Shown here piece after piece: positions 5,382 through 49,747 of a DNA stretch of 64,000 nucleotides. Location: NCBI GenBank assembly GCA_963543945.1, contig CAUUCN010000001.1, positions 1,118 to 65,117 on the forward strand, written 5' to 3'. Position numbers and translations under genes: made by a program. This DNA comes from an uncultured Candidatus Saccharibacteria bacterium (lineage in GTDB: Bacteria > Patescibacteriota > Saccharimonadia > Saccharimonadales > Saccharimonadaceae). Positions within the stretch are counted from its first letter, which is position 1; each line of letters begins with the position of its first letter. Below the pieces are notes generated by a model. The model had not been told where the DNA came from, made no database searches, and saw only the letters and a list, made by a program, of their open reading frames with translations.

Positions 5382-6287
5382 TTAGTTGTAGATATTTTCT
5401 ACAGCGATGGATGGGCCCATGGTGGTAGAAATAAAGATACTCTTAATGTATTGACCCTTGATAGAAGCTGGTTTCATTGATTTTAAAGAATCCATGAATA
5501 CGGTAGCATTTTCGTTCAATTGGTCGAGGGTGAAATTGGTTTTACCAACACCGATGTGAACGATAGCTTGCTTGTCGACACGATATTCGACCTTACCAGC
5601 CTTAGATTCCTTGACGGCTTTCTCAATATCGAGAGTGACGGTACCAGCCTTTGGATTTGGCATCAAACCCTTAGGGCCGAGTAAGCGAGCAAACTTACCA
5701 AGTTTTGGCATGTAAGCTGGGGTAGAAATGAGAACGTCGAAATTGATGATTCCCTTTTCGAGTTGCTTGATGAATTCGGCATCTTCAGCGATGTCAGCGC
5801 CGGCAGCCTTAGCTTTCTTACATTCATCTTCTGGAGCGAAGACGGCGACACGAACAGTCTTACCATTACCGTTTGGAAGAACGATGGTGGTGCGAATGTT
5901 TTGGTCAGCTTGGCGTGGGTCGACACCAAGACGGGCGTGAATTTCGATAGTGGCATCGAATTTAGCTGGATTGGTTTCGACAGCAAGCTTGATAGCGTCG
6001 GTGAGGCTGTAAGCCTTGGTCTTGTCGATATTCTTGTAAGCGGCTTGGTATTTTTTACCACGGCGTTCCAAGATTGAACGAGTGACTGGCTTGGCACCCT
6101 TTGGTTTCTCCTCTAGGGCTTCTTGCTTGTGCTCTTCAGCACGAGCTTTGCGCTCTTCTTCAGCTTTAACTTCTTCGAGGTGCTTCTTAGATTTTTTACC
6201 AGATTTGGCAAATTTTTCTTCGGTCTCGACAGTTTCGACTGGAGTTTGGTTTAATTCTTCAGTAGATTTGATTTGTTCTTCTGACAT
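5382..6287 (-). CDS. rplA: 50S ribosomal protein L1 with ~70-aa Lys/Glu-rich N-terminal extension
   Basis: Residues ~73-301 read as bacterial L1 ([28 protein letters not shown]); sits directly downstream of rplK. Confidence 0.9.
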
Positions 6288-35771: not shown

Positions 35772-35806
35772 AAAAGCCCCGACCGTGGTCGAGGCTTGTT
35801 TTTTTT
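35771..35806. terminator. Bidirectional hairpin terminator
   Basis: GCCCCGACC/GGTCGAGGC stem (one mismatch) between A5 and T8. Confidence 0.7.
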
Positions 35807-35811
35807 GGGAA

Positions 35812-36903
35812 TTAGTGAGCTGATTCATTCTCCATGAATTCTTTGGCGAAAATATAGTCTTGCCCAGTATAGTGTGATGGGTCGCCACACTCAAGCAACA
35901 TTTTTCGATTGATTAATTTGCTGCCAGAATCACTGAGATAAGCTAAGACAAGCCAATCGATTGGGTCTTCAGGCTGCATTCTTGCGTAATTAGCTTCTTT
36001 GGCTAATTCTTCAATGTCACCCCAAGCTGGCAGGTAATTACATTTAATGAACTGCTTCATGGTTAGGCCACGGTAATTGACTTTGCTCATAATAAACGGA
36101 AGTCCAGTATGGTGAATGAAATCACGTATAGAGACGGGATCTGGTAGATTAGCTAGAGTTTTCCCAGGCTCTATGTCGAGATAATCATCACAGTGAAGAA
36201 GAATCCAAGGTTTGGTGTATTCTCTAGGTTTAATGCCAATACTAATCCACCTACCAGATGAACCCTCAATGATGTCGTCGATAAGATCAGTAATGTATAG
36301 CAGATTTGATCCATCAATGAATCGCACTGGAATGATTTTGTTAATCATTTTACGAATTTGTCCCGAATCAATACCATGAGCGTAAAAGAAATTGAGTATC
36401 TTAAATAGAGTGTCTGGATACTCCGCACTACTCAAGATGTAATCTTCGGATAAATCAAACGTAGTTTGGACAGAAACACCATTAATGATCAGGTCGTTAA
36501 TCTCATCGAGCGAATAAGGCTCGAAGCCATCGTGAATTACGATTTCATCCATATCCGCACCTAAGGAATACAGGCGGTGTAGGTTTATCTTGCTGCATTC
36601 TACGGGTATTGAGCTGGCAATTTGATTAATATCTAAATGCGCGCCGGCATTTTGGAGTGCTTCAAACTGCTCAATAACGTCTAATGGATGTAAAACTTGA
36701 ACGATTTCTCCCATATCAACACCTGCATCATGTATTTTAGGCCAATACTTGGCCAGAATTTTGTAGGCTGAACTCAATTTTTTCTCATTTTCCGATTCCT
36801 GAATGCATTTTTTTAAGACTGGGAAAATATCATACCAGAATTTTTGATTAAATTTTTCACGGGTGGCTACTACCAATGCTTTTAAGATGCCAATAATATT
36901 CAT
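35812..36903 (-). CDS. Family B2 hypothetical protein
   Basis: Start ATG 36903 (AGGAGGGG Shine-Dalgarno); helical G(A/V)D(M/I)..I repeats; core ~85% nt identity with B1. Confidence 0.7.
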   Translation of the reverse strand: MNIIGILKALVVATREKFNQKFWYDIFPVLKKCIQESENEKKLSSAYKILAKYWPKIHDAGVDMGEIVQVLHPLDVIEQFEALQNAGAHLDINQIASSIPVECSKINLHRLYSLGADMDEIVIHDGFEPYSLDEINDLIINGVSVQTTFDLSEDYILSSAEYPDTLFKILNFFYAHGIDSGQIRKMINKIIPVRFIDGSNLLYITDLIDDIIEGSSGRWISIGIKPREYTKPWILLHCDDYLDIEPGKTLANLPDPVSIRDFIHHTGLPFIMSKVNYRGLTMKQFIKCNYLPAWGDIEELAKEANYARMQPEDPIDWLVLAYLSDSGSKLINRKMLLECGDPSHYTGQDYIFAKEFMENESAH

Positions 36904-36919
36904 TTTACCCCTCCTTGAA

Positions 36920-37264
36920 TTAATCATTGAATAATAAGCCGACGTATTGATACTTATGTGGTGGTTGAGATTTAAAAACATTGTAGTCAAAATCACTAAC
37001 ATCCAGCAGTTCAAAACGATATTTCTGCTTAGCATTAGGATATTTGATCGGGTCTAATTCCTCGAAAAATTCCGCGTACGGACGAACGTAGAGTTGCAGA
37101 TCACCATAAAGCGCCAAATAAACAACGTATCGCTCCCCCTTGTCTGGATTTTTCTTATTTGGCTTAATAGCGACATCGACGAGCAGGTAGGATTCACCCT
37201 CAAAATGATGGTAAATACCGCGAGTTTTACAGCGTGGGTTGTGGACGAATTCTTTTTCTTCCAT
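36920..37264 (-). CDS. DUF1653-like protein
   Basis: GIYHHFEGESYLLVDVA...ERYVVYLALYGD..LYVRPYAEFFEE...YRFELL matches my recollection of the DUF1653 pattern. Confidence 0.6.
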   Translation of the reverse strand: MEEKEFVHNPRCKTRGIYHHFEGESYLLVDVAIKPNKKNPDKGERYVVYLALYGDLQLYVRPYAEFFEELDPIKYPNAKQKYRFELLDVSDFDYNVFKSQPPHKYQYVGLLFND

Positions 37265-37272
37265 AACAATTC

Positions 37273-37361
37273 CCCTTTCTTTTAAAGAGCTCGCAAAAAT
37301 TTGCGCGAGCTAAACATGAGTTTAACGGCTATATTATGGCAGAGTATATGGGGTTTGTCAA
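37273..37361. repeat. Promoter plus 5' UTR module, copy 2
   Basis: See 34505..34591; the leader hairpin here is at 37288-37311. Confidence 0.8.
37333..37361 (-). promoter_or_regulatory. Sigma70-type promoter TTGACA-17-CATAAT for the DUF1653-B2 operon
   Basis: Exact 17-nt spacer; inverted copy of CTCAAGTGCAAC at 37365-37376. Confidence 0.6.
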
Positions 37362-37444
37362 GGTGTTGCACTTGAGGGGGGCGACGGATTCACATCTCGG
37401 CAATTAGCTGAATTTGCGGGATTTGGCAAGCGATGTGGTTTACA

Positions 37445-37473
37445 TTGACACATTAGCATAAGTATGTTAAAAT
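37445..37473 (+). promoter_or_regulatory. Sigma70-type promoter TTGACA-17-TAAAAT for D2
   Basis: TTGACAcattagcataagtatgtTAAAAT; the leader carries an ACCTCG/CGAGGT hairpin plus a U-rich tract (37503-37534). Confidence 0.65.
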
Positions 37474-37548
37474 ATATTGATTAGCATTATCGCTAAGTGG
37501 TTGACCTCGTAACGTATGCCGAGGTGGTTCTTTTACAGGAGGTGTTGT

Positions 37549-37929
37549 ATGCACAGTGAAGTAAGAAACGGTGATTCATTGGCTTTTGAAGTAATGAATG
37601 GACCAAGTAGGGATCGCATTCATATTGCAAACATGTATGCTTTTGATCAAAATATGTCGATTGATCTGGAATTTAAGGTAGTTTTCGCAAAACGGGAAAA
37701 TCCGGCTGGTGGAACGACTCGAGATTTTATGGCATTGAAAAATCTGCAAATCATGGGGGTGATTCACGCTGATCGCACTGGGTATGATTTTAATATTCAG
37801 GGAACTTGCGATGCGGATGTGAAATCTCCGATGAACAAATGTAATGCTTATCGAAATTTTCGTTTTTCGATGGATTACAATGCGAAGCTTCGAACCGGGT
37901 CACTGAGATTAAAGCCAATGAGGTTTTAA
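37549..37929 (+). CDS. Family D2 hypothetical protein
   Basis: Start ATG 37549 (AGGAGG Shine-Dalgarno); LEFKV, GYDFNIQGTC and FSMDYNAKLRTGSLRL align with D1. Confidence 0.65.
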   Translation: MHSEVRNGDSLAFEVMNGPSRDRIHIANMYAFDQNMSIDLEFKVVFAKRENPAGGTTRDFMALKNLQIMGVIHADRTGYDFNIQGTCDADVKSPMNKCNAYRNFRFSMDYNAKLRTGSLRLKPMRF

Positions 37930-38005
37930 GATTAATTCTCGAGTGACTTTTGTAATGCTATGTAATTTTGGATTCTTAAGGATTTTGACTTAGAAAGGTG
38001 GGGAG

Positions 38006-38347
38006 ATGATTAAAAATTACTTATCACATGTCTGCCGAATTTTGGATGACAATGATGAAATACTAACGACATACCAACCAGAAGAAGGGGCGATTGAAAT
38101 TGAGGCAAAAAGTATGCTACGTGAGCATATTGGAGTGGTGCCAATTTTCCAAATTACGTTCTCGAAGATGGTGGGTCTGCCAAGTTATGAAGAGGGGGTG
38201 TTCTATATCGTAAAACCAACTGTGGTGCGGGCGGTCAAGGATCTCGGTCGAACGATTGATGATCTATTTCTGCCAGTGTTTTCAGTTACGGATGACGAGG
38301 GAGCGCTGATTGGTTTTAGAGGGCTAGCTTCTGCACGTGACTTATAA
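38006..38347 (+). CDS. Family E1 hypothetical protein
   Basis: GVFYIVKPTVVRAVKDLGRTIDDLFLPVFSVTDDEGALIGFRGLA aligns with the high-GC gene 47935..48267. Confidence 0.65.
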   Translation: MIKNYLSHVCRILDDNDEILTTYQPEEGAIEIEAKSMLREHIGVVPIFQITFSKMVGLPSYEEGVFYIVKPTVVRAVKDLGRTIDDLFLPVFSVTDDEGALIGFRGLASARDL

Positions 38348-38481
38348 GACATTCACTTTCGGGTTCGGATTTTTCCGGGCCTTTTTTAATGAAAAAATCC
38401 CCGGCGAACCGAGGATTTTTGAGTGATGAAAGAGGATGAGAAAGCGAAGATTAGAAAATTCGATCTTAGGGAATCTGAGAT

Positions 38482-39573
38482 TTAGATTTCTTTCTGATTG
38501 AGGACTTTACCGTATTTGATACGTTTATTTTTCGATAAATCGCATCGATTAAAGAGTTCTATAAGTTTTTCCCGATTAATATTGGTGGCGCCATATTTAA
38601 GCAGGGCAACGCCAATTCGAAGTTTATCATCTGGCGTACAAAATAGGTTGCCATGTTCATATTTTTCAGCCAGTATATCAATCTGACCACCAGACACTAG
38701 GTAATTCTTGGTAAGGAATTTCTCAAAATCGCAACCATATCTAGTGGCAACGTAAACTTGCTGAATATTAAGTAACTCAAGAAACTGATTGATAGTGATC
38801 GTGGGTGGCAACTTTTTGAGATTAGGCTCTATTGATATGAAATCTTGGAAGTTCATATTAACCCAAATTGGTCGATAATCGTCAAGATTGATGCCGAAGA
38901 TGGTCCAATCGAGTGGGTCAGCGGCCATGATACTCTCGTGTATTTTTGGATTGCAGTGGTCTTTAATCCAGGCGGCAATGAGACCGAGTGAAAGATTCTG
39001 CTGATAGAAAAAATAGAGTAGACAGTAAACATTAGCAGGTTTTGGAGATTCCTTGACGAGGAGCTGGTTGGCCATCACGAAAATCGTCGTGAGGTTGACT
39101 CCGAGGACGCGCATTTCGGCGCATTGAACTTCGAGATCATGCTTAGTTTCGATCTTATAGCAGTTCATGGCGATAGTGTCGATATCGACACCGCGTTGCT
39201 GAAATTTTTTGAGGTTTCTCAGGATAAAATCACGACCTTTGATTTGAATTAACTGGTACATTAATTCATAAGAATCGACATGGACCTTAGAGGCTTTGAC
39301 TTTGTCGTAGTGACGCCAGATGTAGCTGGGGCTAAGTAGTTCCCTAACCTCGCTGGAGTTGGCGCCGGCCGCTAAAAGTTCAGACCAGATGGTTTGTGAA
39401 ATTCTATAAACACTGCCACGCTCTGCTTTAGTGCGGGCAAGTGTCATGGCGGCGTAGAGCGCATCATGTAGGTCAAGATAGCGCTTGACATAGGCGGGAG
39501 TACGACAGACTCTGGGCAGTTCCTCGAAACTAGATTCCGCGATTTGAAACATAATTTGGAATTTTTGACTCAT
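38482..39573 (-). CDS. Family B3 hypothetical protein (divergent)
   Basis: Start ATG 39573 (AAAGGGGA Shine-Dalgarno); shares the C-terminal layout with B1/B2 (IWVNMNFQDFISIEP..., NYLVSGGQIDILA, LINREKL). Confidence 0.65.
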   Translation of the reverse strand: MSQKFQIMFQIAESSFEELPRVCRTPAYVKRYLDLHDALYAAMTLARTKAERGSVYRISQTIWSELLAAGANSSEVRELLSPSYIWRHYDKVKASKVHVDSYELMYQLIQIKGRDFILRNLKKFQQRGVDIDTIAMNCYKIETKHDLEVQCAEMRVLGVNLTTIFVMANQLLVKESPKPANVYCLLYFFYQQNLSLGLIAAWIKDHCNPKIHESIMAADPLDWTIFGINLDDYRPIWVNMNFQDFISIEPNLKKLPPTITINQFLELLNIQQVYVATRYGCDFEKFLTKNYLVSGGQIDILAEKYEHGNLFCTPDDKLRIGVALLKYGATNINREKLIELFNRCDLSKNKRIKYGKVLNQKEI

Positions 39574-39627
39574 GTTTTCCCCTTTCATTTTGTAAAAGAA
39601 CGTGTAATAGATACAAAGTTTCCATTT

Positions 39628-39656
39628 ATTATCACATGAGATGCTTATTTTGTCAA
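39628..39656 (-). promoter_or_regulatory. Sigma70-type promoter TTGACA-17-GATAAT for B3
   Basis: Exact 17-nt spacer. Confidence 0.6.
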
Positions 39657-39735
39657 AATAAGCGTAGATGGAGAGCATAAAAGGTGGCTATGATTTTTTG
39701 TGAAGAGGCGGGGTTTATGAAGCATAAGCTTATAG

Positions 39736-39741
39736 TATAAT
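39736..39741 (+). promoter_or_regulatory. -10 box TATAAT 6 nt before ATG 39748 (leaderless-type start)
   Basis: tatagTATAATggaagaATG. Confidence 0.5.
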
Positions 39742-39747
39742 GGAAGA

Positions 39748-41613
39748 ATGAATCATAATTTGGCGCCAAGTGGTTTGGAGAAAGCAGGAGAGCAGGAGGT
39801 AAACGATAGTTACCTGAAGTTGATGCAGGCGCTGAAAGATGTGGAGTTCTTGGGGGAGAAAAAGACGAAAGTCGAAGAAAAACAGGCCGAAAGCGTGAGT
39901 GATTTTAACCTCGAGGGGATTTTGGGTCGCAAGGAAAAATTGCTATCAGATATAGAGAAGGAACATAGTCAAGAATATTTGATCCGAGAGAGGCATGAGA
40001 TTATTTGTGACCGTGACCATATCGAAAACCAGCGAGTGGATGTGGTGGAGAATCTGGAAAATCAGACTTTGGAATACCGCTTTAAGTTACGTGAACCTTT
40101 GACGGAAATTTCAGAATTGGGGCAGAAATTACGTACCGAATCACGCGAAAAAGACGGCGTGGCGGAGCTTAAAAGTGGTACTTCGGTGCGCCTCGGAGAA
40201 ATTATTTATCATGATTTAGAATCGAAGCGTGAATTTCGTTTGTGTGATGCTCTGGTATTTGAGAAAAATGGTGTGAAAGTTTCTTTGGCGGATGCGACTG
40301 CACGTGAACTAGGTGACGGAGTGATTTCTAGGAAACGTAATACTAGTAATCTGGTACGAGCAGCGATCGGTTTGGTGCAAATGGAAGTGCCAAAAGCGAT
40401 GGATGACATGGCGGCGCAGCAAATAATGGATGAAATTTTTAGGCAGGACCTCGGGGTAGAAGATGCTCTAGATGAAGTTTCGGAAGCGGCGGAGCGCGAT
40501 TATAAAATAGCGAGACTGAAGTGGCAGTATAAATTGGATGAACTTAGCCCGGATCAGGTCGATCGCGCGGAAAAATTGACACGCAAAGAGGTTTTTCCGG
40601 GATATTCGACCTTTATAGAATCTGGGAAACATAATGAGTATTTAGCGAAATACGGTGAGGATGTGCGCGCGGTCCATATGTTGAATTCGATGAGTGTGGA
40701 CTCGGTTTATCGGGTGTTAACTACGGGCTTGATGAGTACGACCGAGCGGTTCAGTCGGGGAGTGGTAAAAAATGGAATTTCCTCGGTACTGGATATTGAT
40801 TCTGGGGGTGCGGACAATGTGTTCACTAGGATTATGAATGCGGAGCAGCGCGGTAAAATTCAGAATCATGCGGTGGTATTGAAGCCGGAAATTTTTGACC
40901 GTACCGATTGGTATGCTTATAATGTGGACTCTTATGGTTCGACTAATGAAGCGCACTTTGCCGGGAGGTTGGTACCAGAGGAGATTTTTCAGCGCACCAT
41001 GGGCGATTTAAAACACTATTCGGCAGACAATGAGCAAATGTTTCGTACGGGTATCGGGGTGGATTATATTGAAGCGATAGAAGTGGATGAGCTGGATCGT
41101 GATGAATTACTTGAGGGGCTTCATGAAAAGGGACTCTTCGAGGTAAATGGGCGACCGATTGAGGAAGTGATTGTGGCGCGGGAATTTGACGAGGATGATG
41201 ACGATTGGGGAGACTTTGGAGCTAATTTTGAAGGGGCGGGTGAGTCGGTGGAAGATTTTTTGGCACAGAATTTAAGAAAGCAGGAACGCATGGAGGCGAT
41301 TTATAATGGCGAAGTAAAAGAGGTGAGCCTGGGAGAACTGACGGCGCTCGCGGAATCTTCGGAGGATTTTAATGATATCTTTGTTTCCCTGGCGGAGGCG
41401 ATTATGAGTCAGGGTGGAGGTGAAAAATTGAGAGTGGATCTCGAAACGCATTTAGGTCAGGTGCTGGGGTTGGAAGATTTGGCAAATTTAGCTTCGGGGA
41501 AGTTGCCAAAAGATTTTACGCCGAATGATTTAGGGGTATTCTTGTTTGCGAAAAATCAATTGGGAGTGGATTTTGGCAAAATGTATATGGAAGCGAGAGG
41601 GGTGAGTATATGA
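39748..41613 (+). CDS. Large hypothetical protein (621 aa); central segment with a weak ADP-ribosyltransferase-like pattern
   Basis: Coiled-coil-rich N-terminus; AVHMLNSMSVDSVYRVLTTGLMSTTE...DNVFTRI...NEQMFRTGIGVDYIEAIEV; acidic C-terminal region. The function call is speculative. Confidence 0.7.
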   Translation: MNHNLAPSGLEKAGEQEVNDSYLKLMQALKDVEFLGEKKTKVEEKQAESVSDFNLEGILGRKEKLLSDIEKEHSQEYLIRERHEIICDRDHIENQRVDVVENLENQTLEYRFKLREPLTEISELGQKLRTESREKDGVAELKSGTSVRLGEIIYHDLESKREFRLCDALVFEKNGVKVSLADATARELGDGVISRKRNTSNLVRAAIGLVQMEVPKAMDDMAAQQIMDEIFRQDLGVEDALDEVSEAAERDYKIARLKWQYKLDELSPDQVDRAEKLTRKEVFPGYSTFIESGKHNEYLAKYGEDVRAVHMLNSMSVDSVYRVLTTGLMSTTERFSRGVVKNGISSVLDIDSGGADNVFTRIMNAEQRGKIQNHAVVLKPEIFDRTDWYAYNVDSYGSTNEAHFAGRLVPEEIFQRTMGDLKHYSADNEQMFRTGIGVDYIEAIEVDELDRDELLEGLHEKGLFEVNGRPIEEVIVAREFDEDDDDWGDFGANFEGAGESVEDFLAQNLRKQERMEAIYNGEVKEVSLGELTALAESSEDFNDIFVSLAEAIMSQGGGEKLRVDLETHLGQVLGLEDLANLASGKLPKDFTPNDLGVFLFAKNQLGVDFGKMYMEARGVSI

Positions 41614-42002
41614 GAAGCTTTAGAAATATTATGAAAAATGGGCGTGAACGCGTGGAAAAATTGCCAGGGGCGGTTTATCTGGTGGAATGCGAGACTGATA
41701 AAACAGTGTTAGTAGCGATGCGACTAGAGGTAGTGCGGCGATTTTCTGAGGGGGAGGAATTTATCTCTGTGAAATGGTTTGACACGGTGCGTGAACGAGT
41801 GATGCGCGCGAAAATGGTTTGGCGCGTGGGTGAATGTCTGGCTTTTGAAAGACTGACAGACAATGGGGGTGGAAAATATTATTTCACGCCGTTGACGCTA
41901 GAGAAATATTATAGTGAAGTGAAAGATTTGTTGGTTTCGGGTGAGGATTTTACAAGTGAAGCGGAAATGATTGAGGCGTTCTTGAAGGCCGAGGCAAAAT
42001 AG
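41610..42002 (+). CDS. Hypothetical protein, translationally coupled (ATGA overlap)
   Basis: 130-aa ORF overlapping the stop of 39748..41613 by 4 nt. Confidence 0.65.
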   Translation: MRSFRNIMKNGRERVEKLPGAVYLVECETDKTVLVAMRLEVVRRFSEGEEFISVKWFDTVRERVMRAKMVWRVGECLAFERLTDNGGGKYYFTPLTLEKYYSEVKDLLVSGEDFTSEAEMIEAFLKAEAK

Positions 42003-42029
42003 GGGCGGGATTTGGGTTTTGAAAAAAAT

Positions 42030-42053
42030 AAACTCTCGAAAAATTCGAGAGTT
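42030..42053. terminator. Bidirectional hairpin terminator
   Basis: AAACTCTCGA/TCGAGAGTTT perfect 10-bp arms. Confidence 0.7.
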
Positions 42054-42072
42054 TAGTGAGAAAACAGTAAAT

Positions 42073-43104
42073 CTAGGCGCCAAGCCGATTAAGATTGGTG
42101 GTTTCAATGCGTGGAATGGAAGTAGATTCTGGTGAAATATCCGTGGTGTCAATTTCGGTTTCAGCAAATTGATCGCAAAGTTTAACCAGATATCGACCAC
42201 GCTTCAGGGTGGTGACCCACTTTTCTGGAATACTTTTGAGTCCATAATGAATACCAGCGAGCGAACCAGTGAGAGCGCCGACCGTATCGGTGTCATCGCC
42301 GAGATTAACCGCAGTAAGTACGGCATCTTGGAAGTTGTCAGTGGTCAGAAACGACCAAAGCGCTGCTTCTAGCGTATCGACTACATAGGCGCGAGAAGAG
42401 ATGAACCCCTTGGGATAGCGATAAATCTGATTTTTCAGAATTCGACTATATAGACTACGCTCTTCCGAATCAAACATACTGTAATCGTCTAGCTGGGTTT
42501 TGCGATAAGCTTCCTTGGGATTATCACCGCCTAATAAGTGGCAAACGAAATTAGTGTAAATCAGACAACCCAGCACGCTAATTGGGTGAGCGTGGGTGAG
42601 GGATGAAATATTTTTCACTAATTCGTAACGTTTTTCACCGGTGATTTGGTTGTTGTGACAAACAAAAGCTACTGGCAAGATGCGCATGAGTGATCCATTA
42701 CCGTTATTGGCGTAATGGCTCATACCACATTTGACGGGGTGTCCGCCAGCGAGATAAGTCTCAATCGCGCGTTTGCAGGTGCCGCCAATATCAAAAGTGA
42801 GCTTAGTAGCGGTGAATTCGTCTTGCAAATACCACTTGACAAAATTCTCCATAATGTCGTGATAATGGAAGCGTTTTTGGTCAATCAATGACTGCATCAG
42901 GCAGATGGTCATAGATGTATCGTCAGACCAAGTACCGGCAGGTTGATGATGGGTACCGACAGATAACATTTCGGTGACCGGCATGAGTTCTAGAAAATTT
43001 CGATTCAAAAACTCAATGGGCACCCCTAATGCGTCGCCAATAGCTAAGCCGATAAGGCCAGAACGAACTGCTTGCTTTATATCCTTTTTCTCTAAATGTA
43101 CCAT
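42073..43104 (-). CDS. ADP-ribosylglycohydrolase family protein
   Basis: GLAIGDALGVPIEF, WSDDTSMT and GDDTDTVGALTGSLAG motifs; AGGAGGAG Shine-Dalgarno. Confidence 0.85.
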   Translation of the reverse strand: MVHLEKKDIKQAVRSGLIGLAIGDALGVPIEFLNRNFLELMPVTEMLSVGTHHQPAGTWSDDTSMTICLMQSLIDQKRFHYHDIMENFVKWYLQDEFTATKLTFDIGGTCKRAIETYLAGGHPVKCGMSHYANNGNGSLMRILPVAFVCHNNQITGEKRYELVKNISSLTHAHPISVLGCLIYTNFVCHLLGGDNPKEAYRKTQLDDYSMFDSEERSLYSRILKNQIYRYPKGFISSRAYVVDTLEAALWSFLTTDNFQDAVLTAVNLGDDTDTVGALTGSLAGIHYGLKSIPEKWVTTLKRGRYLVKLCDQFAETEIDTTDISPESTSIPRIETTNLNRLGA

Positions 43105-43206
43105 AGTATCTCCTCCTATCGATTGGGTGATGATGCGGGATTATTTGTGAAATGGGACCAATTTTGGGTCAGATTTTTCACGATTTTTCCGCACCGAGAT
43201 TTATAT

Positions 43207-43235
43207 ATTATAACAATTTTAGAGTGTTTTGTCAA
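43207..43235 (-). promoter_or_regulatory. Sigma70-type promoter TTGACA-17-TATAAT for the glycohydrolase gene
   Basis: Minus-strand read: TTGACAaaacactctaaaattgtTATAAT. Confidence 0.65.
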
Positions 43236-43240
43236 TGAAG

Positions 43241-43274
43241 AAAAAATCCCCGAAGATAGGCTCCGGGGATTTTA
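43241..43274. terminator. Hairpin terminator, copy 1 of a duplicated 37-nt unit
   Basis: aaaaaatccccgaagataggctccggggattttaatg; near-identical copy at 43406..43440. Confidence 0.65.
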
Positions 43275-43345
43275 ATGAAGAGCTTCGACGTGTGTATTTT
43301 CTTGAATGAATAATCGTTTTAGTATTTTTGGTGTATAATTTTAAT

Positions 43346-43397
43346 ATCGAAGTCTCTGCACGGGGTGTAATGCTCCTACCGCAGGGGCTTCCTTTTT
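43346..43397 (+). ncRNA. Candidate small RNA, copy 1 (~52 nt: own -10 box, long hairpin, U-tail)
   Basis: TATAAT at 43334-43339; GAAGTCTCTGC...GCAGGGGCTTC 11-bp stem plus T5; paralog at 46546..46598 with compensatory stem changes. Confidence 0.5.
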
Positions 43398-43405
43398 ATA
43401 TACGA

Positions 43406-43440
43406 TAAAAAATCCCCGAAGATAAGCTTCGGGGATTTTA
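43406..43440. terminator. Hairpin terminator, copy 2 of the duplicated unit
   Basis: ATCCCCGAAG-ataag-CTTCGGGGAT, 10-bp stem; also serves the convergent HD gene. Confidence 0.7.
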
Positions 43441-43457
43441 ATGTGAGGAATTTAATT

Positions 43458-44045
43458 TTAGAGATTTATTGTGATAATACCTCCTAGCTCATCTATAAGA
43501 GTCGCAAGGTGATGCTTGAGTTCTATCGGCACCGGTTTGTTTCTGATGAGACTAAAAACGGTGCGATAATACCAGAGAATATCTTGTTTAGAAGCATTGA
43601 AGCGCTGCCAAATTTCATCGCCAAACTTATCGTAATCTTTTAGAATGTCAGTCAGGTTATGTATTTTATCGGCGGTTGCGACAATGTAGGCCTCAATGTA
43701 GTAGGAATTGCCGAGGCGCTTCAGGTAACTTTCTTTACGTTCTTTCCAGGGAAGTTTGGGCTGACCGGCCGTTTTAGGTTCCGAAACATCTTTGACGATG
43801 TCGGTAATTTCATCACCAAAATCGCGACGCATGTCAGCCTCAGAATAGACAGCTGGATTGACATCTTCAAGTATATCGTGTAGGATCCCAGCGACAATTG
43901 TTGCTTCGTCGTTGGTATATTGACTAATAATCATGCCGACGGCGACAGGGTGGGAAATATATGGAAAATCGGTTCCCTTGCGGTTTTGACCTTGATGGGC
44001 CTTGGCGGCAATTTTAAGTGCGAGATTAATTTTGTCAGTAAACAT
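43458..44045 (-). CDS. RelA/SpoT-type HD-domain hydrolase (small alarmone hydrolase-like)
   Basis: Start ATG 44045; AHQGQNRKGTDFPYISHPVAVGMI...AGILHDILEDV is the (p)ppGpp-hydrolase HD signature; no synthetase domain. Confidence 0.8.
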   Translation of the reverse strand: MFTDKINLALKIAAKAHQGQNRKGTDFPYISHPVAVGMIISQYTNDEATIVAGILHDILEDVNPAVYSEADMRRDFGDEITDIVKDVSEPKTAGQPKLPWKERKESYLKRLGNSYYIEAYIVATADKIHNLTDILKDYDKFGDEIWQRFNASKQDILWYYRTVFSLIRNKPVPIELKHHLATLIDELGGIITINL

Positions 44046-44170
44046 AGATTCACCTAACCTTTCGTAATGTGTGCGGGTGACTGTTTGGTTAAAATTCCTC
44101 AAATTTTAAGGTGCAATAAATTCACCTCTCTCTCGAGAGGTGAAAGTTGTGTAGCAAATTTTTTCGTAAT

Positions 44171-44791
44171 CTAAATATCTTTTACCTCGGGTTCACGATA
44201 CCAGATGATGCCAGATTTTTCAGAGACAGGGATTTCTAAACTTTGCTCTTTAAAATCCTTATAGGTCGAAACGAACCATTTAGTAGGTGATCCAGTGAAA
44301 GTAATAGAAGTGGCAGTAAGCCATGCTAAAAGACCGAACTCATCTGCGTCGGGCATTACACCGATAAAGCGCGTCTTATCACATATGTCTTGGTATGACG
44401 GCCGGTCGGCCTCTTGGATTTTTTGCCAACCGTTGTATTCGAGGATTTCACCCCAGTGTTTGGCATCGAAGCGATGTTCTCCGGGTTTGCGCGGCCCTGG
44501 TTTAGGTAATTTAGGTGAACTACCGCAGTGTTTTTTCATCATCCAGGCCACATAACTAGTACTACGCCGAATGACGAAGCCATTAGAATCAGTAATTAGG
44601 GTGTAAAAATTACCGTCGGATTCCGGCCATTTGGCAAAATCGGGATCAGCGTAAGGATATTCCTCGGCGCCAGTCTCCATGATGAAACGATAGATGTGAC
44701 GATAGATTATGCGAATAATCCGTTTAGGCTGCCAAGCAGCGCAAGATTCTCTTGCGAAAAAATTTGCTACTTTAATCTTAAATGTACTCAT
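44171..44791 (-). CDS. Hypothetical protein
   Basis: 206-aa ORF with GAAGGAGGGG Shine-Dalgarno; no confident family. Confidence 0.6.
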   Translation of the reverse strand: MSTFKIKVANFFARESCAAWQPKRIIRIIYRHIYRFIMETGAEEYPYADPDFAKWPESDGNFYTLITDSNGFVIRRSTSYVAWMMKKHCGSSPKLPKPGPRKPGEHRFDAKHWGEILEYNGWQKIQEADRPSYQDICDKTRFIGVMPDADEFGLLAWLTATSITFTGSPTKWFVSTYKDFKEQSLEIPVSEKSGIIWYREPEVKDI

Positions 44792-44835
44792 GATTCCCCT
44801 CCTTCATGCTGTGTGGGAAAATACCCAATATTTAT

Positions 44836-44864
44836 ATTATACAATGAAGAGTGGGGCGTGTCAA
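44836..44864 (-). promoter_or_regulatory. Sigma70-type promoter TTGACA-17-TATAAT
   Basis: Minus-strand read: TTGACAcgccccactcttcattgTATAAT. Confidence 0.65.
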
Positions 44865-44946
44865 TTTTTGACCCCTGAGTTAACACAGTATATAAATATT
44901 TCGATTAAAATTTAAAGATTCGTAAATATGGTATATTGTAATTAAT

Positions 44947-45603
44947 ATGAATTTAAGGGAAGCTAAAACCTATATCTATATTGATGTTAGTAACATCCGT
45001 CACGCCTGCCTTTGGAGCTGCGGTTTTGTTCTTGATTTTATTAAATTATATAACTATCTTAAAGAGAAATATCCGAATGTTCAGGAAATTCGTTATTATG
45101 AAGGGATATCTTCTAGTGATAGTAAGAAAATGGAACATTTTCGATTTTTGAGTGAAAAAGTTGGATATAAGATTTGCTCACTTTCTAGAAAAAGCTATAT
45201 TGAACCACCAAAGTACGAAAAATATAGATGCGCGAATTGCGGGTCTCTAAATAATATAAAAGTACTTTCGAAAAATGTGAAATTAAAATCGAATATTGAT
45301 GTTTATTTGACATCGGATCTGCTGGAGTGTGTTGCAAGATCAAAGGACCCAATTAATATCATAATCCTTTCTTGTGATGGAGATTATGCCGAAGCAATTA
45401 AGGCAACTCTTCGATTGAGCCCCGATTCTTGTGTAACGGTTTTAGCTACACCAGTAACAGAAATAAATAATTGCCTATCAGTTAGATTAAAACAACTTAG
45501 TCGTGAGCTTGATCGAAGTAATTATAAGTTGTCAAATATAAATAATATTAGAGATTATGTTGCTCAGTCTTTTGAGGGCGGTAAGAATAAATTGAAAAAA
45601 TAA
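44947..45603 (+). CDS. NYN/LabA-like domain protein with an inserted zinc-ribbon-like CxxC pair
   Basis: IYIDVSNIRHA ... IIILSCDGDYAEAIK (NYN acidic motifs); YRCANCGS; TATATT-9 nt-ATG start. Confidence 0.65.
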   Translation: MNLREAKTYIYIDVSNIRHACLWSCGFVLDFIKLYNYLKEKYPNVQEIRYYEGISSSDSKKMEHFRFLSEKVGYKICSLSRKSYIEPPKYEKYRCANCGSLNNIKVLSKNVKLKSNIDVYLTSDLLECVARSKDPINIIILSCDGDYAEAIKATLRLSPDSCVTVLATPVTEINNCLSVRLKQLSRELDRSNYKLSNINNIRDYVAQSFEGGKNKLKK

Positions 45604-45814
45604 TTAAGGATATTTTTAGAATCGAGCAACCCGCCATTTCTGGCGGGTTCTCATGAAGATAGCACCGAAGTGGTATCTCCGACGTTGGAGTTTCTTACTC
45701 CGATGTCTTTATTCTAGCATATATTGAAGAAAAACTCAATCCGAGTTCTAGTTGCATTTTTATAGTGTTATACTCGACGTAAAGCGGAGTAGAGGCTTAT
45801 GATATAATAAAAAT

Positions 45815-46354
45815 ATGGCTCATACTTTGTGTGCTAATAAACATAGTATGTGGAACGGCGATGGAAAAGTTTGCGTCGATGCTTATTCTGTTGAACTTAT
45901 TAAAAAAATATCAGAAGAAAACCCTGATAAGAAATTTGGCGATAAAGATAACGACTATTCCCTATTGGTTGATATTTATGATTCTTGCCCAGAAAAAGAA
46001 CCGGATATATGGCGATGCACGAAATGTCTAAGTCTAGTGATTTTCTTTTCTGATAATGAATATGGAATAGAAAAATGCTATGGTTATGTAGTTGATGAAA
46101 CGGAAAATTTGCCAGATAAAACGTTATATTCAAAATGGGAGGAGTATTTTGTTGAAAATAACGACGCCTTCGAAGAGCATCATGAGAATCTAAAAAATCA
46201 AGGTCTAACGCCATACGAATCATTTGAGAGATTCCATAAGGAATCAGATAAGTTAAACTTCGCATATGTAAGTGACGATAAGCTGAAAATTGTTGTAACA
46301 GATAATAGTTATAATCCAATTCGCCTTTATAAATTAAAATGGAAGACAGAATAA
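45815..46354 (+). CDS. Hypothetical Cys/His-containing protein
   Basis: 179-aa ORF; TATAAT-6 nt-ATG; C..H..C and RCTKC motifs. Confidence 0.6.
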   Translation: MAHTLCANKHSMWNGDGKVCVDAYSVELIKKISEENPDKKFGDKDNDYSLLVDIYDSCPEKEPDIWRCTKCLSLVIFFSDNEYGIEKCYGYVVDETENLPDKTLYSKWEEYFVENNDAFEEHHENLKNQGLTPYESFERFHKESDKLNFAYVSDDKLKIVVTDNSYNPIRLYKLKWKTE

Positions 46355-46477
46355 AGCGTTGATGTTGGAGTTGCAGTCAGTATGGGGGAAGATGCATTGA
46401 TGAATATGCTTATAAGGTCGCCAATAATCTTTGATATTGATTTTTAGATATCGGTAGTGTATTATTGAATTACAGCG

Positions 46478-46511
46478 CCTTGGTCTGGATTCGTTCCCGC
46501 CAAGGTTTTTT
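46478..46511 (+). terminator. Intrinsic terminator
   Basis: CCTTGG...CCAAGG stem followed by TTTTTT. Confidence 0.6.
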
Positions 46512-46545
46512 GATTTAAGATAATTTTATGTGATATAGTGAAAAT

Positions 46546-46598
46546 ATCGAAGTTCTTGCACGGCGCCGAAGGTACCTACCGCAGGAGCTTCTTTTTTT
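46546..46598 (+). ncRNA. Candidate small RNA, copy 2
   Basis: TGaTATAGT at 46531-46539; GAAGTTCTTGC...GCAGGAGCTTC stem plus T7. Conserved AATATCGAAGT, TGCACGG and CCTACCGCAGG blocks; the inner 11 nt differ from copy 1. Confidence 0.5.
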
Positions 46599-46759
46599 GC
46601 ATAAAATAACGATCGTGATACATATAAAAACACAAAGTCAGTTCTCTAGATAGTTTTGGTTAACCGTTTCTGTATATTTTCAACAATTCATTCGCGAGAT
46701 AGCCGAAAGCGTGTGAGTGGTATAATCATAAATAGGATACTAGAAAAGGAATAACTTTT

Positions 46760-47221
46760 ATGGAAAACGCTCCACGAATTAATGGTGAAAAAACGATGAA
46801 TATGGCTACACAACCCAATAGCCCAGATCGAACTGCTAATAAAACCTCAATCGTGAACCGACCATATATCAGAAAAGAAACCATCAATACCGTCGTTGAT
46901 CGTGATGGAAATGATAGCATGAGGATGGAAGAAATGCCAGCTGGAAAATCAGAAGAGCAAATTGAGAGTGAAAGAGTTGGTCGTGTTAAAATTAATGACG
47001 AAATGCAGGCTAGAATGAAGGTGTACTGGGCTGATAAACGAGCAAATGAGCAAAAACAACGTGAAGAACAAGAACGAGTTCGAAAAGAAAAGGCGATGAC
47101 TGAAGCCGAGCATCAAAGGATTCTGCAAGAACAAAGAGAAAAAGTTCAAAATGCATATCATCGAAATACTGAAAATGAACTTAATGAAGAGCAAGATAAT
47201 GAAATGGAAATGGAGATGTAG
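46760..47221 (+). CDS. Highly charged coiled-coil-like hypothetical protein
   Basis: 153-aa ORF; AAAAGGAA Shine-Dalgarno; E/K/R/Q-rich. Confidence 0.6.
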   Translation: MENAPRINGEKTMNMATQPNSPDRTANKTSIVNRPYIRKETINTVVDRDGNDSMRMEEMPAGKSEEQIESERVGRVKINDEMQARMKVYWADKRANEQKQREEQERVRKEKAMTEAEHQRILQEQREKVQNAYHRNTENELNEEQDNEMEMEM

Positions 47222-47224
47222 AAT

Positions 47225-47551
47225 ATGAAAACATTTCGATTGTCTTCAAATGAAATCAAAATTTTAACGGATATGAAGGGTGGCTGTATTGCATCAGATA
47301 GAATTACTGTGGATGGGCAAAAAGTTGGCTACGCTTATCGAGAAGATCCAGATAAGAATTTTTCAAATGATAGTGGATGGAGATTTCTTGCTGGGGATGA
47401 AAGCGAGGAATATCTGAATAATCCTAACAATTTTGACGTATTTGAAATAAGCACTATCTGTAATTACGATCCGAATATTCTAGATATTTTAGACGGGAAA
47501 ATTGGCGAGTCTTATATTAGAGATAGTAATACATTTAAATTAGATTTTTAA
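47225..47551 (+). CDS. DUF2185 / Imm33-like immunity-type protein
   Basis: NDSGWRFLAGDESEEYLNNPNNFDVFEISTICNYDPNILDIL matches my recollection of the DUF2185 signature (DSGW.f..G.E). Confidence 0.6.
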   Translation: MKTFRLSSNEIKILTDMKGGCIASDRITVDGQKVGYAYREDPDKNFSNDSGWRFLAGDESEEYLNNPNNFDVFEISTICNYDPNILDILDGKIGESYIRDSNTFKLDF

Positions 47552-47588
47552 CCTCAGTTCCTAAATATGGTATAATTTGAACTTTTTA

Positions 47589-47759
47589 ATGGAAACAACA
47601 CTGGCGGTATATTGTATTATAGTTGTTTTTTACAAAATAAGCATGTATTATATTGACACTTTTAAGCATATGTTCTATAATATGAGTTATACGCTTGAGA
47701 AAGGCCTAGCCGATCTGAAAGCTTATATGAAAGAACAATTCAGAAATGAAAAGTTCTAG
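47589..47759 (+). CDS. Possible small hydrophobic protein (56 aa); doubtful
   Basis: TATAAT 12 nt upstream; one predicted TM segment (TLAVYCIIVVFYKISMYY). It overlaps the promoter of the next unit, so it may be non-coding. Confidence 0.25.
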   Translation: METTLAVYCIIVVFYKISMYYIDTFKHMFYNMSYTLEKGLADLKAYMKEQFRNEKF

Positions 47760-47934
47760 TACCTTCAAAACGTAGGAATTAACACCAACTTTGATCAAAG
47801 TGGGATACTTATGCAGGAAGCTTTCGTGCGTAGCTACCCCACTTTGCGAAAAGAGAGCTTTGGCTGGGGTTGTTCCGGGATGGTCCCGAACAAAATTTGA
47901 TTTTGCTAGGGCAAAAGCCCGGAGAGGAGTCCAT
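47692..47934 (+). promoter_or_regulatory. Long structured 5' leader of the high-GC gene
   Basis: -10 box TATAAT at ~47675-47680; hairpins GTTCCGGG...CCCGAAC and GGGC-aaaa-GCCC next to the Shine-Dalgarno. The 47864-47929 segment loosely resembles ykkC-type conserved blocks. Confidence 0.35.
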
Positions 47935-48267
47935 ATGAATATAATTAATTTGACGCCCCACACTGTGAACATCTGCACTGAGGATGGAGATATCGAGTGC
48001 TCGTTCAAATCTGAAGGTGTCGCTCGCGCAAGCCAGGTGGCAGTACCTTTCGGTGACGTCAATGGAATCGAGTTGGTCGAGATGCGTTTCGGCCCTACCG
48101 TTGATCTTCCTGACCCTGAGGCAGGTACCGTACTTATTGTATCTGCGATCACCGCAAGTGCCGCTAAGGCGGAAGGTCGTTCTACTGATGACCTGGTGCT
48201 TACAGCGGATACTGTCCGTGACAAGGATGGCCGTATCGTCGGCTGCAGGCGCTTCGCCCGCGTATAA
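47935..48267 (+). CDS. Family E2 hypothetical protein (high-GC copy)
   Basis: Start ATG 47935 (GGAGAGGAG Shine-Dalgarno); MNIINLTPHTV...TVLIVSAITASAAKAEGRSTDDLVLTADTVRDKDGRIVGCRRFA aligns with 38006..38347. Confidence 0.7.
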   Translation: MNIINLTPHTVNICTEDGDIECSFKSEGVARASQVAVPFGDVNGIELVEMRFGPTVDLPDPEAGTVLIVSAITASAAKAEGRSTDDLVLTADTVRDKDGRIVGCRRFARV

Positions 48268-48298
48268 GGGACCATCCCCCCTACCTACGTTATTTTAT

Positions 48299-48332
48299 AA
48301 CCCCGGTCTCTATGGCCGGGGTTTCCATTTTT
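48299..48332 (+). terminator. Intrinsic terminator
   Basis: AACCCCGG/CCGGGGTT stem followed by a T-rich tract. Confidence 0.7.
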
Positions 48333-48345
48333 ATCTTAAAGCATA

Positions 48346-48354
48346 TGCTATAAT
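48346..48354 (+). promoter_or_regulatory. Extended -10 promoter TGcTATAAT, 7 nt before ATG 48362 (leaderless-type)
   Basis: aTGcTATAATatgtaatATG. Confidence 0.55.
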
Positions 48355-48361
48355 ATGTAAT

Positions 48362-49747
48362 ATGAAAGACCCCAATGTGGTAAAAAATGAATCCGAAAAA
48401 GACTCTGATTATGATGCCGATTGGGGTGCTGGTTGGGGTAAAGTAGCGGCGTTAGCTAACAATCCAAATCTTAGTGAAGCATCATCTAAGGAGAATCCAG
48501 AAGATTCCGATGAATATGAGGAATCTGATGACTATGATAACGAAGACGACTACGACGACTATGACGATTACGATAGTGAGGATGATGGTTATGATCGTGA
48601 TGAGGATGCTTATGGTGATTATGATGACGGCTATGATAACTATGATGGCGAAGACGATGATTATGATCATGGCGAGGATGCGTATGGTGATTATGACGAC
48701 GATTATGATGACTATGACGATGATGATGATTACAATAGCTACTATAATGGCGACAACGAGCGCCTAGAGGTAAAAGAAGACGAATTAAAAATTCGAGAAA
48801 TACCTCTACCGGAAAATATCTTAAAAAGATATGATTTTATCGAGAAGTTACCTAGTGGTATTGCTATAATGGGTGGTGTGGCAAGGAGTGTAGCACGCGA
48901 GATTTTGACTGGTGAAAAAGAGCCAATCAGGGATATTGATCTTGTGGAAATTACTGATAATGAAGACGAAAGCACAGTCGACCCAGAGCTTCTCGATGAA
49001 TTAGCACAAACTTATATGCCAGATGATTATGCATTTGGCCATGGAATCGGACTAGACACCTTAGAAGATTATTTCTCTACACGCGACTTCACTATTAATG
49101 AATGCCTTATTAAGGACGGTAAGCTTCTCGTGAGTGAGTTAGCGGAAAATGATTTTAAGGAAAATATTATCAGACCAACTTATTATGAAGCCCCATATGA
49201 CGGAGATAAACTGTCGGGACGGCTTTTCTTGAAAGCGATACTGATGCAGACCGTGATATCGCAAATTTCTGAATCCATACCGTTACTTGAGGATGTTCAT
49301 GTGAATTTTCAATATATTGGCGATTTTGATACGGCAGTATTTCTTAATAAGGCGATGAGTCGCGGGGTAGAAACAGCGGTAAAATTTACAGAGAATCTTG
49401 CTGAATGGGGTGTAGTATACCCAGAATTTGCTGGTAGGCCTATGGCGCTTGCGAAAGATTTACTTACTAATGCATACAATTTTAAATTTAGACCATCTAC
49501 AGATGAAAGATTTCTAGAACCAGAAGAAGGTCGCGACATGAGCGGATTTTTTGTGCCAAAAGCTATGCAAGAATACCATTCATCCGATCCAGCAATAGCC
49601 CGAGCTATAGATGAGTATGATAGTGGCCCAGATTACAGTAATGATGATAATGATGGTGATAATAACGGTGAGCCAGTTTCGGGATATTATACACAGAAAG
49701 ATTACGATGAGATTAATTCGAGTGTGGATAGTCGTGACATAGAATAA
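48362..49747 (+). CDS. Class-II (CCA-adding / poly(A) polymerase-type) nucleotidyltransferase-like protein with N-terminal Asp/Tyr-rich tract
   Basis: Start ATG 48362; the longer ORF-track ORF reads through the upstream gene. GGVARSVAREILTGEKEPIRDIDL and EDYFSTRDFTINECL head-domain motifs; aa 46-132 are almost only D/E/Y/G. Confidence 0.65.
   Translation: MKDPNVVKNESEKDSDYDADWGAGWGKVAALANNPNLSEASSKENPEDSDEYEESDDYDNEDDYDDYDDYDSEDDGYDRDEDAYGDYDDGYDNYDGEDDDYDHGEDAYGDYDDDYDDYDDDDDYNSYYNGDNERLEVKEDELKIREIPLPENILKRYDFIEKLPSGIAIMGGVARSVAREILTGEKEPIRDIDLVEITDNEDESTVDPELLDELAQTYMPDDYAFGHGIGLDTLEDYFSTRDFTINECLIKDGKLLVSELAENDFKENIIRPTYYEAPYDGDKLSGRLFLKAILMQTVISQISESIPLLEDVHVNFQYIGDFDTAVFLNKAMSRGVETAVKFTENLAEWGVVYPEFAGRPMALAKDLLTNAYNFKFRPSTDERFLEPEEGRDMSGFFVPKAMQEYHSSDPAIARAIDEYDSGPDYSNDDNDGDNNGEPVSGYYTQKDYDEINSSVDSRDIE

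Follow-up and report, generated by a model that had tools for sequence, protein, structure and literature searches.

The 64,000-nt stretch of DNA analysed here (the window), which belongs to contig CAUUCN010000001.1 of an uncultured Candidatus Saccharibacteria bacterium, contains a patch of high G+C content (GC) that carries a promoter, a leader of ~245 nt, a Shine-Dalgarno (SD) sequence followed by the coding sequence (CDS) of a 110-amino-acid (aa) protein, and an intrinsic terminator. We call the gene crn4b, as its product is predicted to be a Crn4b-type ring nuclease, and a divergent paralogue lies elsewhere in the window (Table 1). Judged from the sequence, transcription would start near 47688. 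Both promoter hexamers are kept in two clades of Saccharibacteria, clade A (which includes the window) and clade B, and the gene that follows the terminator has a TATAAT of its own at 48349-48354, 8 nt ahead of its ATG. A first-pass annotation had seen the patch as made up of leader, 110-aa gene (47935-48267) and GC-rich terminator, an anatomy borne out by the sequence, in which the G+C-rich terminator occupies 48299-48323, and had interpreted it as a probable foreign copy of a gene family that is also present in the window in an AT-richer, native-looking copy (38006-38347).

Table 1. Positions of the crn4b cassette, its paralogue and neighbouring genes in the window
Feature	Position	Strand	Evidence
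Promoter TTGACA-17 nt-TATAAT, 12/12 consensus	47653-47681	+	sigma-70 consensus scan
P0 hairpin, outer stem UAUA.GCUU/AAGC.UAUA, apical helix GGC/GCC, at the predicted 5' end of the transcript	47688-47727	+	folding of 26 leaders
P1/P2, 9-bp stem CAAAGUGGG/CCCACUUUG around a hairpin of variable length and sequence	47796-47846	+	RNAalifold, covariance model R1
Invariant single-stranded core GCGAAAAGAGAGCUU(U)GG, directly 3' of P1	47846-47863	+	alignment of 27 leaders
P3 hairpin UUC(C)GGGA/UCCCGAA; sister clade UCCGA/UCGGA	47873-47890	+	clade alignment
P4 hairpin GGGC-AAAA-GCCC (47909-47920) and SD sequence GGAGAGGAG (47921-47929), start codon 5 nt on	47909-47929	+	sequence
crn4b, predicted Crn4b-type ring nuclease, 110 aa, T7/H9/R95	47935-48267	+	PDB 9r7b, PADLOC Unk_01, AlphaFold2/Foldseek
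Intrinsic terminator, 10-bp stem with 7 G-C pairs, then T run	48299-48333	+	terminator scan
Divergent paralogue, 113 aa, 43% GC; NYLSH keeps the His, VTD replaces the catalytic Arg, ARA to IEI	38006-38347	+	BLASTP, alignment, PADLOC
ADP-ribosylglycohydrolase	42073-43104		Pfam annotation of syntenic genes in relatives
HD_4 domain protein	43458-44102		Pfam annotation of syntenic genes in relatives
NYN nuclease	44947-45603		Pfam annotation of syntenic genes in relatives
Imm33	47225-47551		Pfam match in window
Gene for a 461-aa protein, downstream	48362-49747	+	CCA-adding/poly(A) polymerase head-like motif GGVARSVAREILTGEKEPIRDIDLV in central domain

Judged by homology and predicted structure, the 110-aa gene encodes a CRISPR ring nuclease of the Crn4b type. 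The first description of Crn4, published in late 2025, drew on type III CRISPR loci and on phages and plasmids; it presents the enzyme as a homodimeric, metal-independent ring nuclease whose phage and plasmid copies may serve as anti-CRISPRs (Chi et al., Nat Commun 2025, PMC12830947). A profile made from homologues of the window protein (A1) matched the structure of Crn4b (PDB 9r7b) with an E-value of 1.1e-21 and matched Crn4a as well, and the single sequence was sufficient to find 9r7b with residues 2-107 aligned (E 2.6e-10). PADLOC assigned the protein to Unk_01 (E 4e-25; 'small protein, sometimes fused to CARF'), which is the earlier PADLOC name of Crn4 (PMC12830947), and neither Pfam nor NCBIfam contained a matching model. 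The AlphaFold2 model (predicted local distance difference test score, pLDDT, 96.2; predicted template modelling score, pTM, 0.84) shows eight strands, one helix (71-79) and a long hairpin (31-42/45-56), and a Foldseek comparison with the PDB returned Crn4 entries only at E<=0.001, led by 9r7b with a template modelling (TM) score of 0.70, the first non-Crn4 match following at E 0.3. The ~10-residue hairpin extension of Crn4a is absent as in Crn4b, which aligns with the window protein over its full length, as opposed to residues 54-107 only in the case of Crn4a. The family is large, with 7,664 cluster representatives at E<=1e-3, and one member with 37% identity to the window protein, P0032, is encoded within a type III CRISPR locus next to Cas10-Cmr2, Cmr3, RAMP, Cas6, RT-Cas1 and Cas2.

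The catalytic residues are in place: T7 and H9 belong to the NLTPH motif and R95 to the VRD motif; none of the three varies in alignment A2, and they hardly do in A1. In Crn4a, H15 and R112 are essential and contributed by different subunits, and the conserved threonine is T13; the Crn4b equivalents of H15 and R112 are H17 and R103, and Crn4b has the cyclic tetra- and triadenylates cA4 and cA3 as substrates (PMC12830947). By homology, the window protein would be a homodimeric, metal-independent phosphodiesterase that cleaves cyclic oligoadenylates (cOAs), probably cA4 and cA3, to linear products of the A2>P type, with His9 of one subunit acting as general acid and Arg95 being supplied by the other subunit, and cleavage would switch off cOA-dependent immune effectors. 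Differences between close alleles are synonymous in 12 cases and nonsynonymous in 2 when read in the plus frame, which supports the plus strand as coding. A 189-aa open reading frame (ORF) on the minus strand (47706-48275) covers the entire gene and is most likely a by-product of the G+C-rich sequence.

In the two Saccharibacteria clades, the leader forms a conserved structured RNA, which occurs upstream of crn4b only and is absent from Rfam. Its P0 hairpin folds alike in 26 leaders, with an apical helix that varies in sequence and keeps its pairing (GGC/GCC, CGG/CCG, GAGCGG/CCGCUC), the core GCGAAAAGAGAGCUU is identical in 27/27 aligned leaders, and the place of P4 is taken in the sister clade by GCGG/CCGC at the same position. 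RNAalifold detected 10 compensatory pairs in P1/P2 of 21 leaders. A covariance model (R1) that was built from clade B only recognized the window at 47796-47937 with 58 bits (E 5e-15), its sole match there; in the R1 alignment, 96.4% of the cells are paired and 11 pairs are changed on both sides, 9 of the 22 pairs of P1/P2 and, between the clades, two pairs of P3. The covariation score amounts to 0.33, as compared with 0.154 after shuffling (0/500) and 0.04-0.08 with slid partners. The 20-mer ACYTTGCGAAAAGAGAGCTT, which spans the core, was present on 29 metagenome contigs, with a crn4b ORF coming next in 28 of them and the remaining contig ending just past the motif, and had no exact match among the viral contigs of IMG/VR. 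R1 likewise found no credible match in 26 viral loci or in the loci L005, L021, L023 and L024, and weak matches in L022 and L026 were discarded as spurious, being located inside the CDS of a P-loop protein. When the window and clade-B leaders were compared with Rfam 15, none reached a gathering score and the E-value mode gave only generic hairpin matches, and our literature searches on Saccharibacteria and cOAs and on riboswitches and ring nucleases yielded no earlier description.

The leader would control the translation or the stability of the crn4b mRNA. A 5' hairpin commonly stabilises bacterial mRNAs. The leader contains no terminator. In the minimum free energy fold of the window leader without the downstream CDS, the SD sequence pairs with GGGGUUGUUCCGGG, the alternative fold being the P3 and P4 hairpins, and the probability that the SD sequence is unpaired ranges from 0.34 to 0.94 across homologues. 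We also noted complementarity between a conserved leader segment just 3' of the core and the codons for the catalytic NLTPH motif (UGGGGU at 47865-47870 and GCCCCA at CDS positions 47955-47960 in the window; in clade B, GGUGUCAG in the leaders of L017, L018 and L052 and CUGACACC in codons 6-8), and the CDS hexamer CCCCAC repeats the 3' arm of P1; as synonymous changes in the CDS have no covarying counterpart in the leader, a long-range helix between the two is no more than a possibility. At L021 (5700-6000), whose protein groups with clade B, the leader escapes the covariance model and only the fragments ACCCCAGCGGCAUAAGAGGCU are retained upstream, and this may be a divergent variant in which a much longer insertion replaces P2.

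Promoter, leader, SD sequence and gene are kept as one block in the two clades, in different genomic contexts: in clade A the block always lies within a toxin/immunity island, and in clade B, whose proteins are 62-69% identical to the window copy, it is found at L007 among the core genes truB, dus, rpsO, fpg and rpsT. A promoter box T(T/A)AAGCATATG(T/-)(T/C)CTATAAT is common to the cassette (47660-47681) and the adjacent downstream transcription unit (48334-48354), and the box with AAGCATATG may be a promoter element typical of the lineage.

The first-pass annotation had rightly called the patch much richer in GC than its surroundings. The 60-nt lines from 48001 to 48300 have 53-57% GC, the adjacent spacers 19-25% and the line 5401-5460 within rplA 43%. 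Sliding frames of 300 nt and 540 nt reach 57% at 48021-48320 (z 3.25) and 52% at 47781-48320 (z 2.8), respectively, with a window mean of 41% and a standard deviation of 4-5%, and the patch is the second-highest GC peak in the 64 kb. The crn4b CDS has ~53% GC, with 61/46/52% at codon positions 1/2/3, whereas the mean over the 56 long ORFs in the window is 42% (50/34/42%), and at the near-identical locus L012 the third-position GC (GC3) of crn4b lies 16 points above that of the island flanks. Sliding-frame GC and codon usage had been proposed in the annotation as a check on the anomaly, and the result is divided: the patch stands as an outlier, but part of the anomaly dissolves, since the amino acids of crn4b in combination with the codon usage of the window already predict 50.2% GC, compared with an observed 53.6% and a gene mean of 41.8%. 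The highest GC peak of the window (59331-59630, 58.7%) falls on the C-terminus encoded by a minus-strand ORF of 1075 aa (59321-62548), a Gly/Thr/Ala/Pro-rich tail (...TAGSHTGGGRAGTHPLQTGPTGTYY...), and is probably another effect of amino-acid composition.

The GC offset is a property of the whole family. crn4b exceeds its flanks in GC at 18 of 19 non-viral loci, almost all of them from Saccharibacteria, and at 24 of 25 viral loci (genome GC 29-70%). The full composition calculation covered the 27 loci that have enough flanking genes (genome GC 30-70%), and gave a mean excess of +10.4 points, with +5.2 attributable to amino-acid composition and +5.2 residual; GC3 was over expectation in 24/27 loci (p 4e-7), and the synonymous shift was mainly from T3 to C3 and also from A3 to G3. 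In the window, three sources would together produce the GC-rich patch: a protein rich in Ala, Gly, Arg, Val, Asp, Pro and Thr, which provides ~+8 of the +12 points, the G+C-rich RNA helices and terminator, and the synonymous GC3 (mainly C3) excess that is near-universal across genomes and phages with the gene. Because the same excess is seen family-wide, it is not diagnostic of a transfer into the window genome, and the synonymous pattern points to probable selection on mRNA or translation and not to a recent foreign origin. The crn4b CDSs at loci without a detected R1 leader often fold far more stably than their synonymous shuffles (L005:6001-6336, z -8.1; L054:5001-5330, z -7.0; L023:5998-6333, z -6.5; many of L055-L079, with values down to -9.7 among the viral loci), and the entire L054 CDS forms one long imperfect hairpin. 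Values of z < -3.5 occur in 44% of 32 crn4b genes versus 8% of 25 flanking control genes (Mann-Whitney p 0.03), and the leader-bearing clades A and B show no such excess (z +0.9 to -2.9), which suggests that an RNA-level requirement is fulfilled either by the leader or by the CDS itself.

Taken together, we consider it likely that the patch represents an autonomous cassette for the expression of crn4b, carried by a Nanosynbacter-like Saccharibacteria genome, and that its high GC is a family trait and not the trace of a recent transfer. Some of our own data weigh against this interpretation. The GC3 of the window crn4b is 52.7% versus an expected 43.1% (+9.6 points), which is only ~2 standard deviations for a gene of this size, and synonymous shuffles of the window CDS are as structured as the CDS itself (z 0.07). 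Where close alleles differ, the window mostly has G/C and the relatives have A/T, which also fits a slow decay from a GC-richer ancestor. The covariation of the leader derives largely from the split between two clades plus variants within them, and was counted in an alignment fitted to the model. As to the enzyme, the adenine-stacking arginine (R92 of Crn4a) is Ala71 here (S70-A71) and A, V or L in the Saccharibacteria clades, and a PADLOC scan of the 56 large ORFs in the window was negative for Cas10, CARF, SAVED and CD-NTase. As to the origin of the gene, the first-pass annotation had proposed that the GC-rich copy was probably acquired horizontally, with an actinobacterial host or its phage as an attractive source, and that the AT-richer copy looks native. 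The compositional outlier is indeed real, GC3 lies 10-16 points over expectation, the gene is situated within a variable toxin/immunity island, and Crn4a was first found in Actinomyces procaprae (PMC12830947), but we judge a recent transfer of this kind to be very improbable. The closest homologues come from the same lineage and have the same GC offset, the outcome that the annotation itself had named as contrary to its proposal: 15 of 16 loci with relatives (46-100% identity) in GTDB species representatives are from Candidatus Saccharibacteria, and one Nanosynbacter metagenome-assembled genome has 100% identity. Saccharibacteria make up nearly all of the closest relatives (56-100% identity), and those that come next are from contexts of 31-50% GC. 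The best phage and plasmid matches reach 38-45% identity (Paenibacillus, Geobacillus), and the search against actinobacterial phages that the annotation had suggested ended at ~36-40% with Thermobifida phages and a Streptomyces plasmid. Crn4a of Actinomyces aligns in the C-terminal half only (E 1e-5), with 26% identity in the structural alignment. A phylogeny had been suggested as well, and in our neighbour-joining tree clades A and B join first, followed by the viral contig L054 as their sister (31% GC, 60% identity) and then by lineages of 34-50% GC, whereas homologues from contexts of 56-70% GC are distant from the window protein. Promoter and leader are specific to Saccharibacteria and kept in two clades, and the AT-richer copy is the narrow, derived one. 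An older origin from a GC-richer phage or plasmid, with movement among lineages and incomplete amelioration that left the GC3 excess as a historical residue, is fairly unlikely. The family is common on phages and plasmids, the cassette contexts differ between clades A and B, GC3 varies from 0.50 to 0.73 among clade-B relatives whose genomes have 40-46% GC, and the G/C to A/T bias of the allele differences agrees with it. However, the GC3 excess recurs in 24/27 independent contexts, including phages of 29-37% GC, which makes GC-richer donors in every case unlikely; moreover, the sister contig L054 has only 31% GC, and the T3 to C3 direction is the usual signature of codon selection.

Two further alternatives concern what the gene and its leader encode. 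The protein could have the Crn4 fold and not cleave cOAs in the window organism, acting instead on another A-rich RNA or nucleotide, which would agree with the replacement of R92 by alanine, with the weak cleavage of poly(A) RNA by Crn4a (PMC12830947), and with the genomic context, as we saw no gene for a cOA synthase or effector in the 64 kb or within the +/-6-10 kb flanks of relatives, and no link of crn4b to Can2, Csm6-2, CorA or type III CRISPR within the window. The 64 kb are only a part of the genome, however, and throughout the clade no exchange of the catalytic His, Arg or Thr is seen. Ligand contacts of Crn4 are described as mostly main-chain (PMC12830947), and the R92 equivalent is for this reason not a catalytic requirement. 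Orphan Crn4b genes of phages and plasmids have already been interpreted as anti-defence ring nucleases (PMC12830947). We regard a function outside cOA degradation as unlikely. The other alternative is that the leader is coding, some gene callers having predicted a 158-aa ORF (P0001) from a TTG at 47791. The frame is open from there and extended forms are predicted in several contigs (P0001, P0006, P0009, P0012), but the paired columns covary in a way that preserves the helices, and a conserved SD sequence and ATG precede the NLTPH start that is common to the whole family and to the Crn4b of the PDB. The leaders range from 139 to 164 nt in steps that are not multiples of three, and the upstream small ORF is not conserved, for which reasons the leader is not coding, and the 158-aa form is scarcely conceivable. 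The small ORF, of 23 aa (47684-47759), was also considered as a leader peptide and is ruled out by stop codons in clade B.

As the first-pass annotation had held, the two window proteins are homologous (27% identity over 107 residues, E 3e-12 in BLASTP) and differ in composition (53% versus 43% GC), but the polarity is the reverse of the one it had assigned, as the GC-rich copy is canonical and widely conserved. The paralogue matches Unk_01 of PADLOC with an E-value of 1.9e-10, and the R1 scan of the window found no R1-type leader next to it. Its homologues comprise close orthologues (87-95% identity) and one fragment only; the full-length orthologues all have VTD for VRD and IEI for ARA, and all but one keep the N-terminal histidine. 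Two other assemblies have this island too, again with both copies in it. By its sequence, the AT-richer copy is a lineage-restricted divergent duplicate that has lost the essential arginine.

A parallel is offered by the strongest representative matches to the family profile, which are proteins of 470-520 aa with two tandem Crn4b domains. P0172 (521 aa) and P0174 (473 aa), and also P0175 and P0177, consist of an N-terminal region of ~260 aa, in which Pfam has no domain, and two Crn4b-like stretches. We read the sequences of P0172 and P0174, in which domain 1 has NLTPH together with VLDD or VLDE, and domain 2 has NLTPR or NMTPR together with VRD or IRN. Since the active site is composite and the losses are complementary, these tandem proteins resemble dimers fused into a single chain in which one site is intact, and they suggest that a single composite site can be enough. 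The pattern of domain 1 (His kept, Arg lost) is also that of the window paralogue, and an asymmetric heterodimer with the canonical copy is therefore a candidate; alternatively, the paralogue may be an inactive binder.

The surroundings of the cassette (35800-47600, and likewise in L001-L004 and L083) are a variable neighbourhood of toxin/immunity and nucleotide-signalling genes, in which relatives additionally carry Fic, a SUKH/SMI1 immunity protein, a CdiA_C-like toxin, DUF3800 and an rve integrase, and the gene directly upstream of the cassette varies between strains. The downstream 461-aa protein, which is extremely acidic at both ends, with many D, E and Y residues, has 322 homologues, the named ones from Saccharibacteria and none of them annotated. 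It had no sequence match in Pfam, PADLOC or the PDB, and with its AlphaFold2 model (pLDDT 65) Foldseek gave no significant match, the best relevant one being 3wfr (TMq 0.42, E 2). As the TATAAT is so close to the ATG, the mRNA is probably leaderless. On account of the motif GGVARSVAREILTGEKEPIRDIDLV, we considered the gene as a functional partner of crn4b, and left it out of the cassette because it is preceded by a promoter of its own and occurs widely in Saccharibacteria.

Saccharibacteria are ultrasmall episymbionts with few known defence systems. Those of the mouth and gut have the canonical version of Crn4b as a conserved gene on the chromosome, and a chromosomal crn4b without a nearby cOA system raises the question of whose signal is degraded, its own, that of a phage or that of the host. 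The leader is a candidate regulatory RNA and would be the first to be connected with cOA signalling. It is a bold and rather improbable idea that it acts as an RNA sensor that couples ring-nuclease synthesis to cOA signalling and that the Arg-less paralogue pairs into an asymmetric enzyme with one site; in such a scheme, the leader could directly bind a cOA species or the linear A>P products, or it could be cleaved by a cOA-activated collateral RNase, which would free the ribosome-binding site. If true, the sensor would represent the first RNA-level feedback control of a ring nuclease, and this in an episymbiont living on bacteria that bear type III CRISPR. The pair of a complete and an Arg-less copy mirrors the complementary losses of tandem Crn4b and suggests that asymmetric ring nucleases exist. 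As a methodological lesson, a GC-rich patch can arise in an AT-rich genome from amino acids, RNA structure and a family-wide synonymous bias, without any transfer.

Among the known systems, the structurally characterized Crn4b of Hyphomicrobiales (9r7b, MBK8772583) is similar in size, with a construct of 128 residues compared with 110 aa here, and aligns from end to end. It shares with the model of the window protein a fold of paired beta strands, one short helix and a long beta-hairpin arm, and with its sequence NLTPH with the catalytic His, VRD with the catalytic Arg, and GC near the C-terminus. The two are only ~30% identical, the window protein having a 5-residue 'xGRxT' insertion ahead of the DDL motif and Ala instead of the adenine-stacking Arg after the VS motif, and unlike its counterpart the window gene adjoins neither Can2 nor any type III CRISPR gene. 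No ring nuclease gene has been reported to have a long structured leader dedicated to it. Actinomyces is the genus that hosts oral Saccharibacteria. The Crn4a of Actinomyces procaprae (WP_136192672; PDB 9sma, 9qs9) belongs to the same family and has the same catalytic residues, but sequence alignment is limited to the C-terminal half, its hairpin is ~10 residues longer, and it degrades the hexaadenylate cA6 and is associated with Csm6-2/CorA at loci of type III-D. The Actinomyces Crn4a is not the source of the window gene. With the orphan crn4b genes of phages and plasmids, the window gene has in common that it lies outside CRISPR loci and has a higher GC than its genomic surroundings; unlike them, it is carried on the chromosome of an episymbiont, comes with a promoter and a leader of its own that are conserved in two clades, and adjoins no phage genes, and its leader was undetected in the 26 viral loci. 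Finally, the leader differs from the riboswitches for cyclic dinucleotides (c-di-GMP-I/II, c-di-AMP ydaO, cGAMP) in having no Rfam match, a single associated gene, no clear expression platform and a narrow phylogenetic range, and it resembles them in being a structured 5' untranslated region with invariant junction nucleotides and helices of variable length that precedes a gene acting on a nucleotide second messenger.

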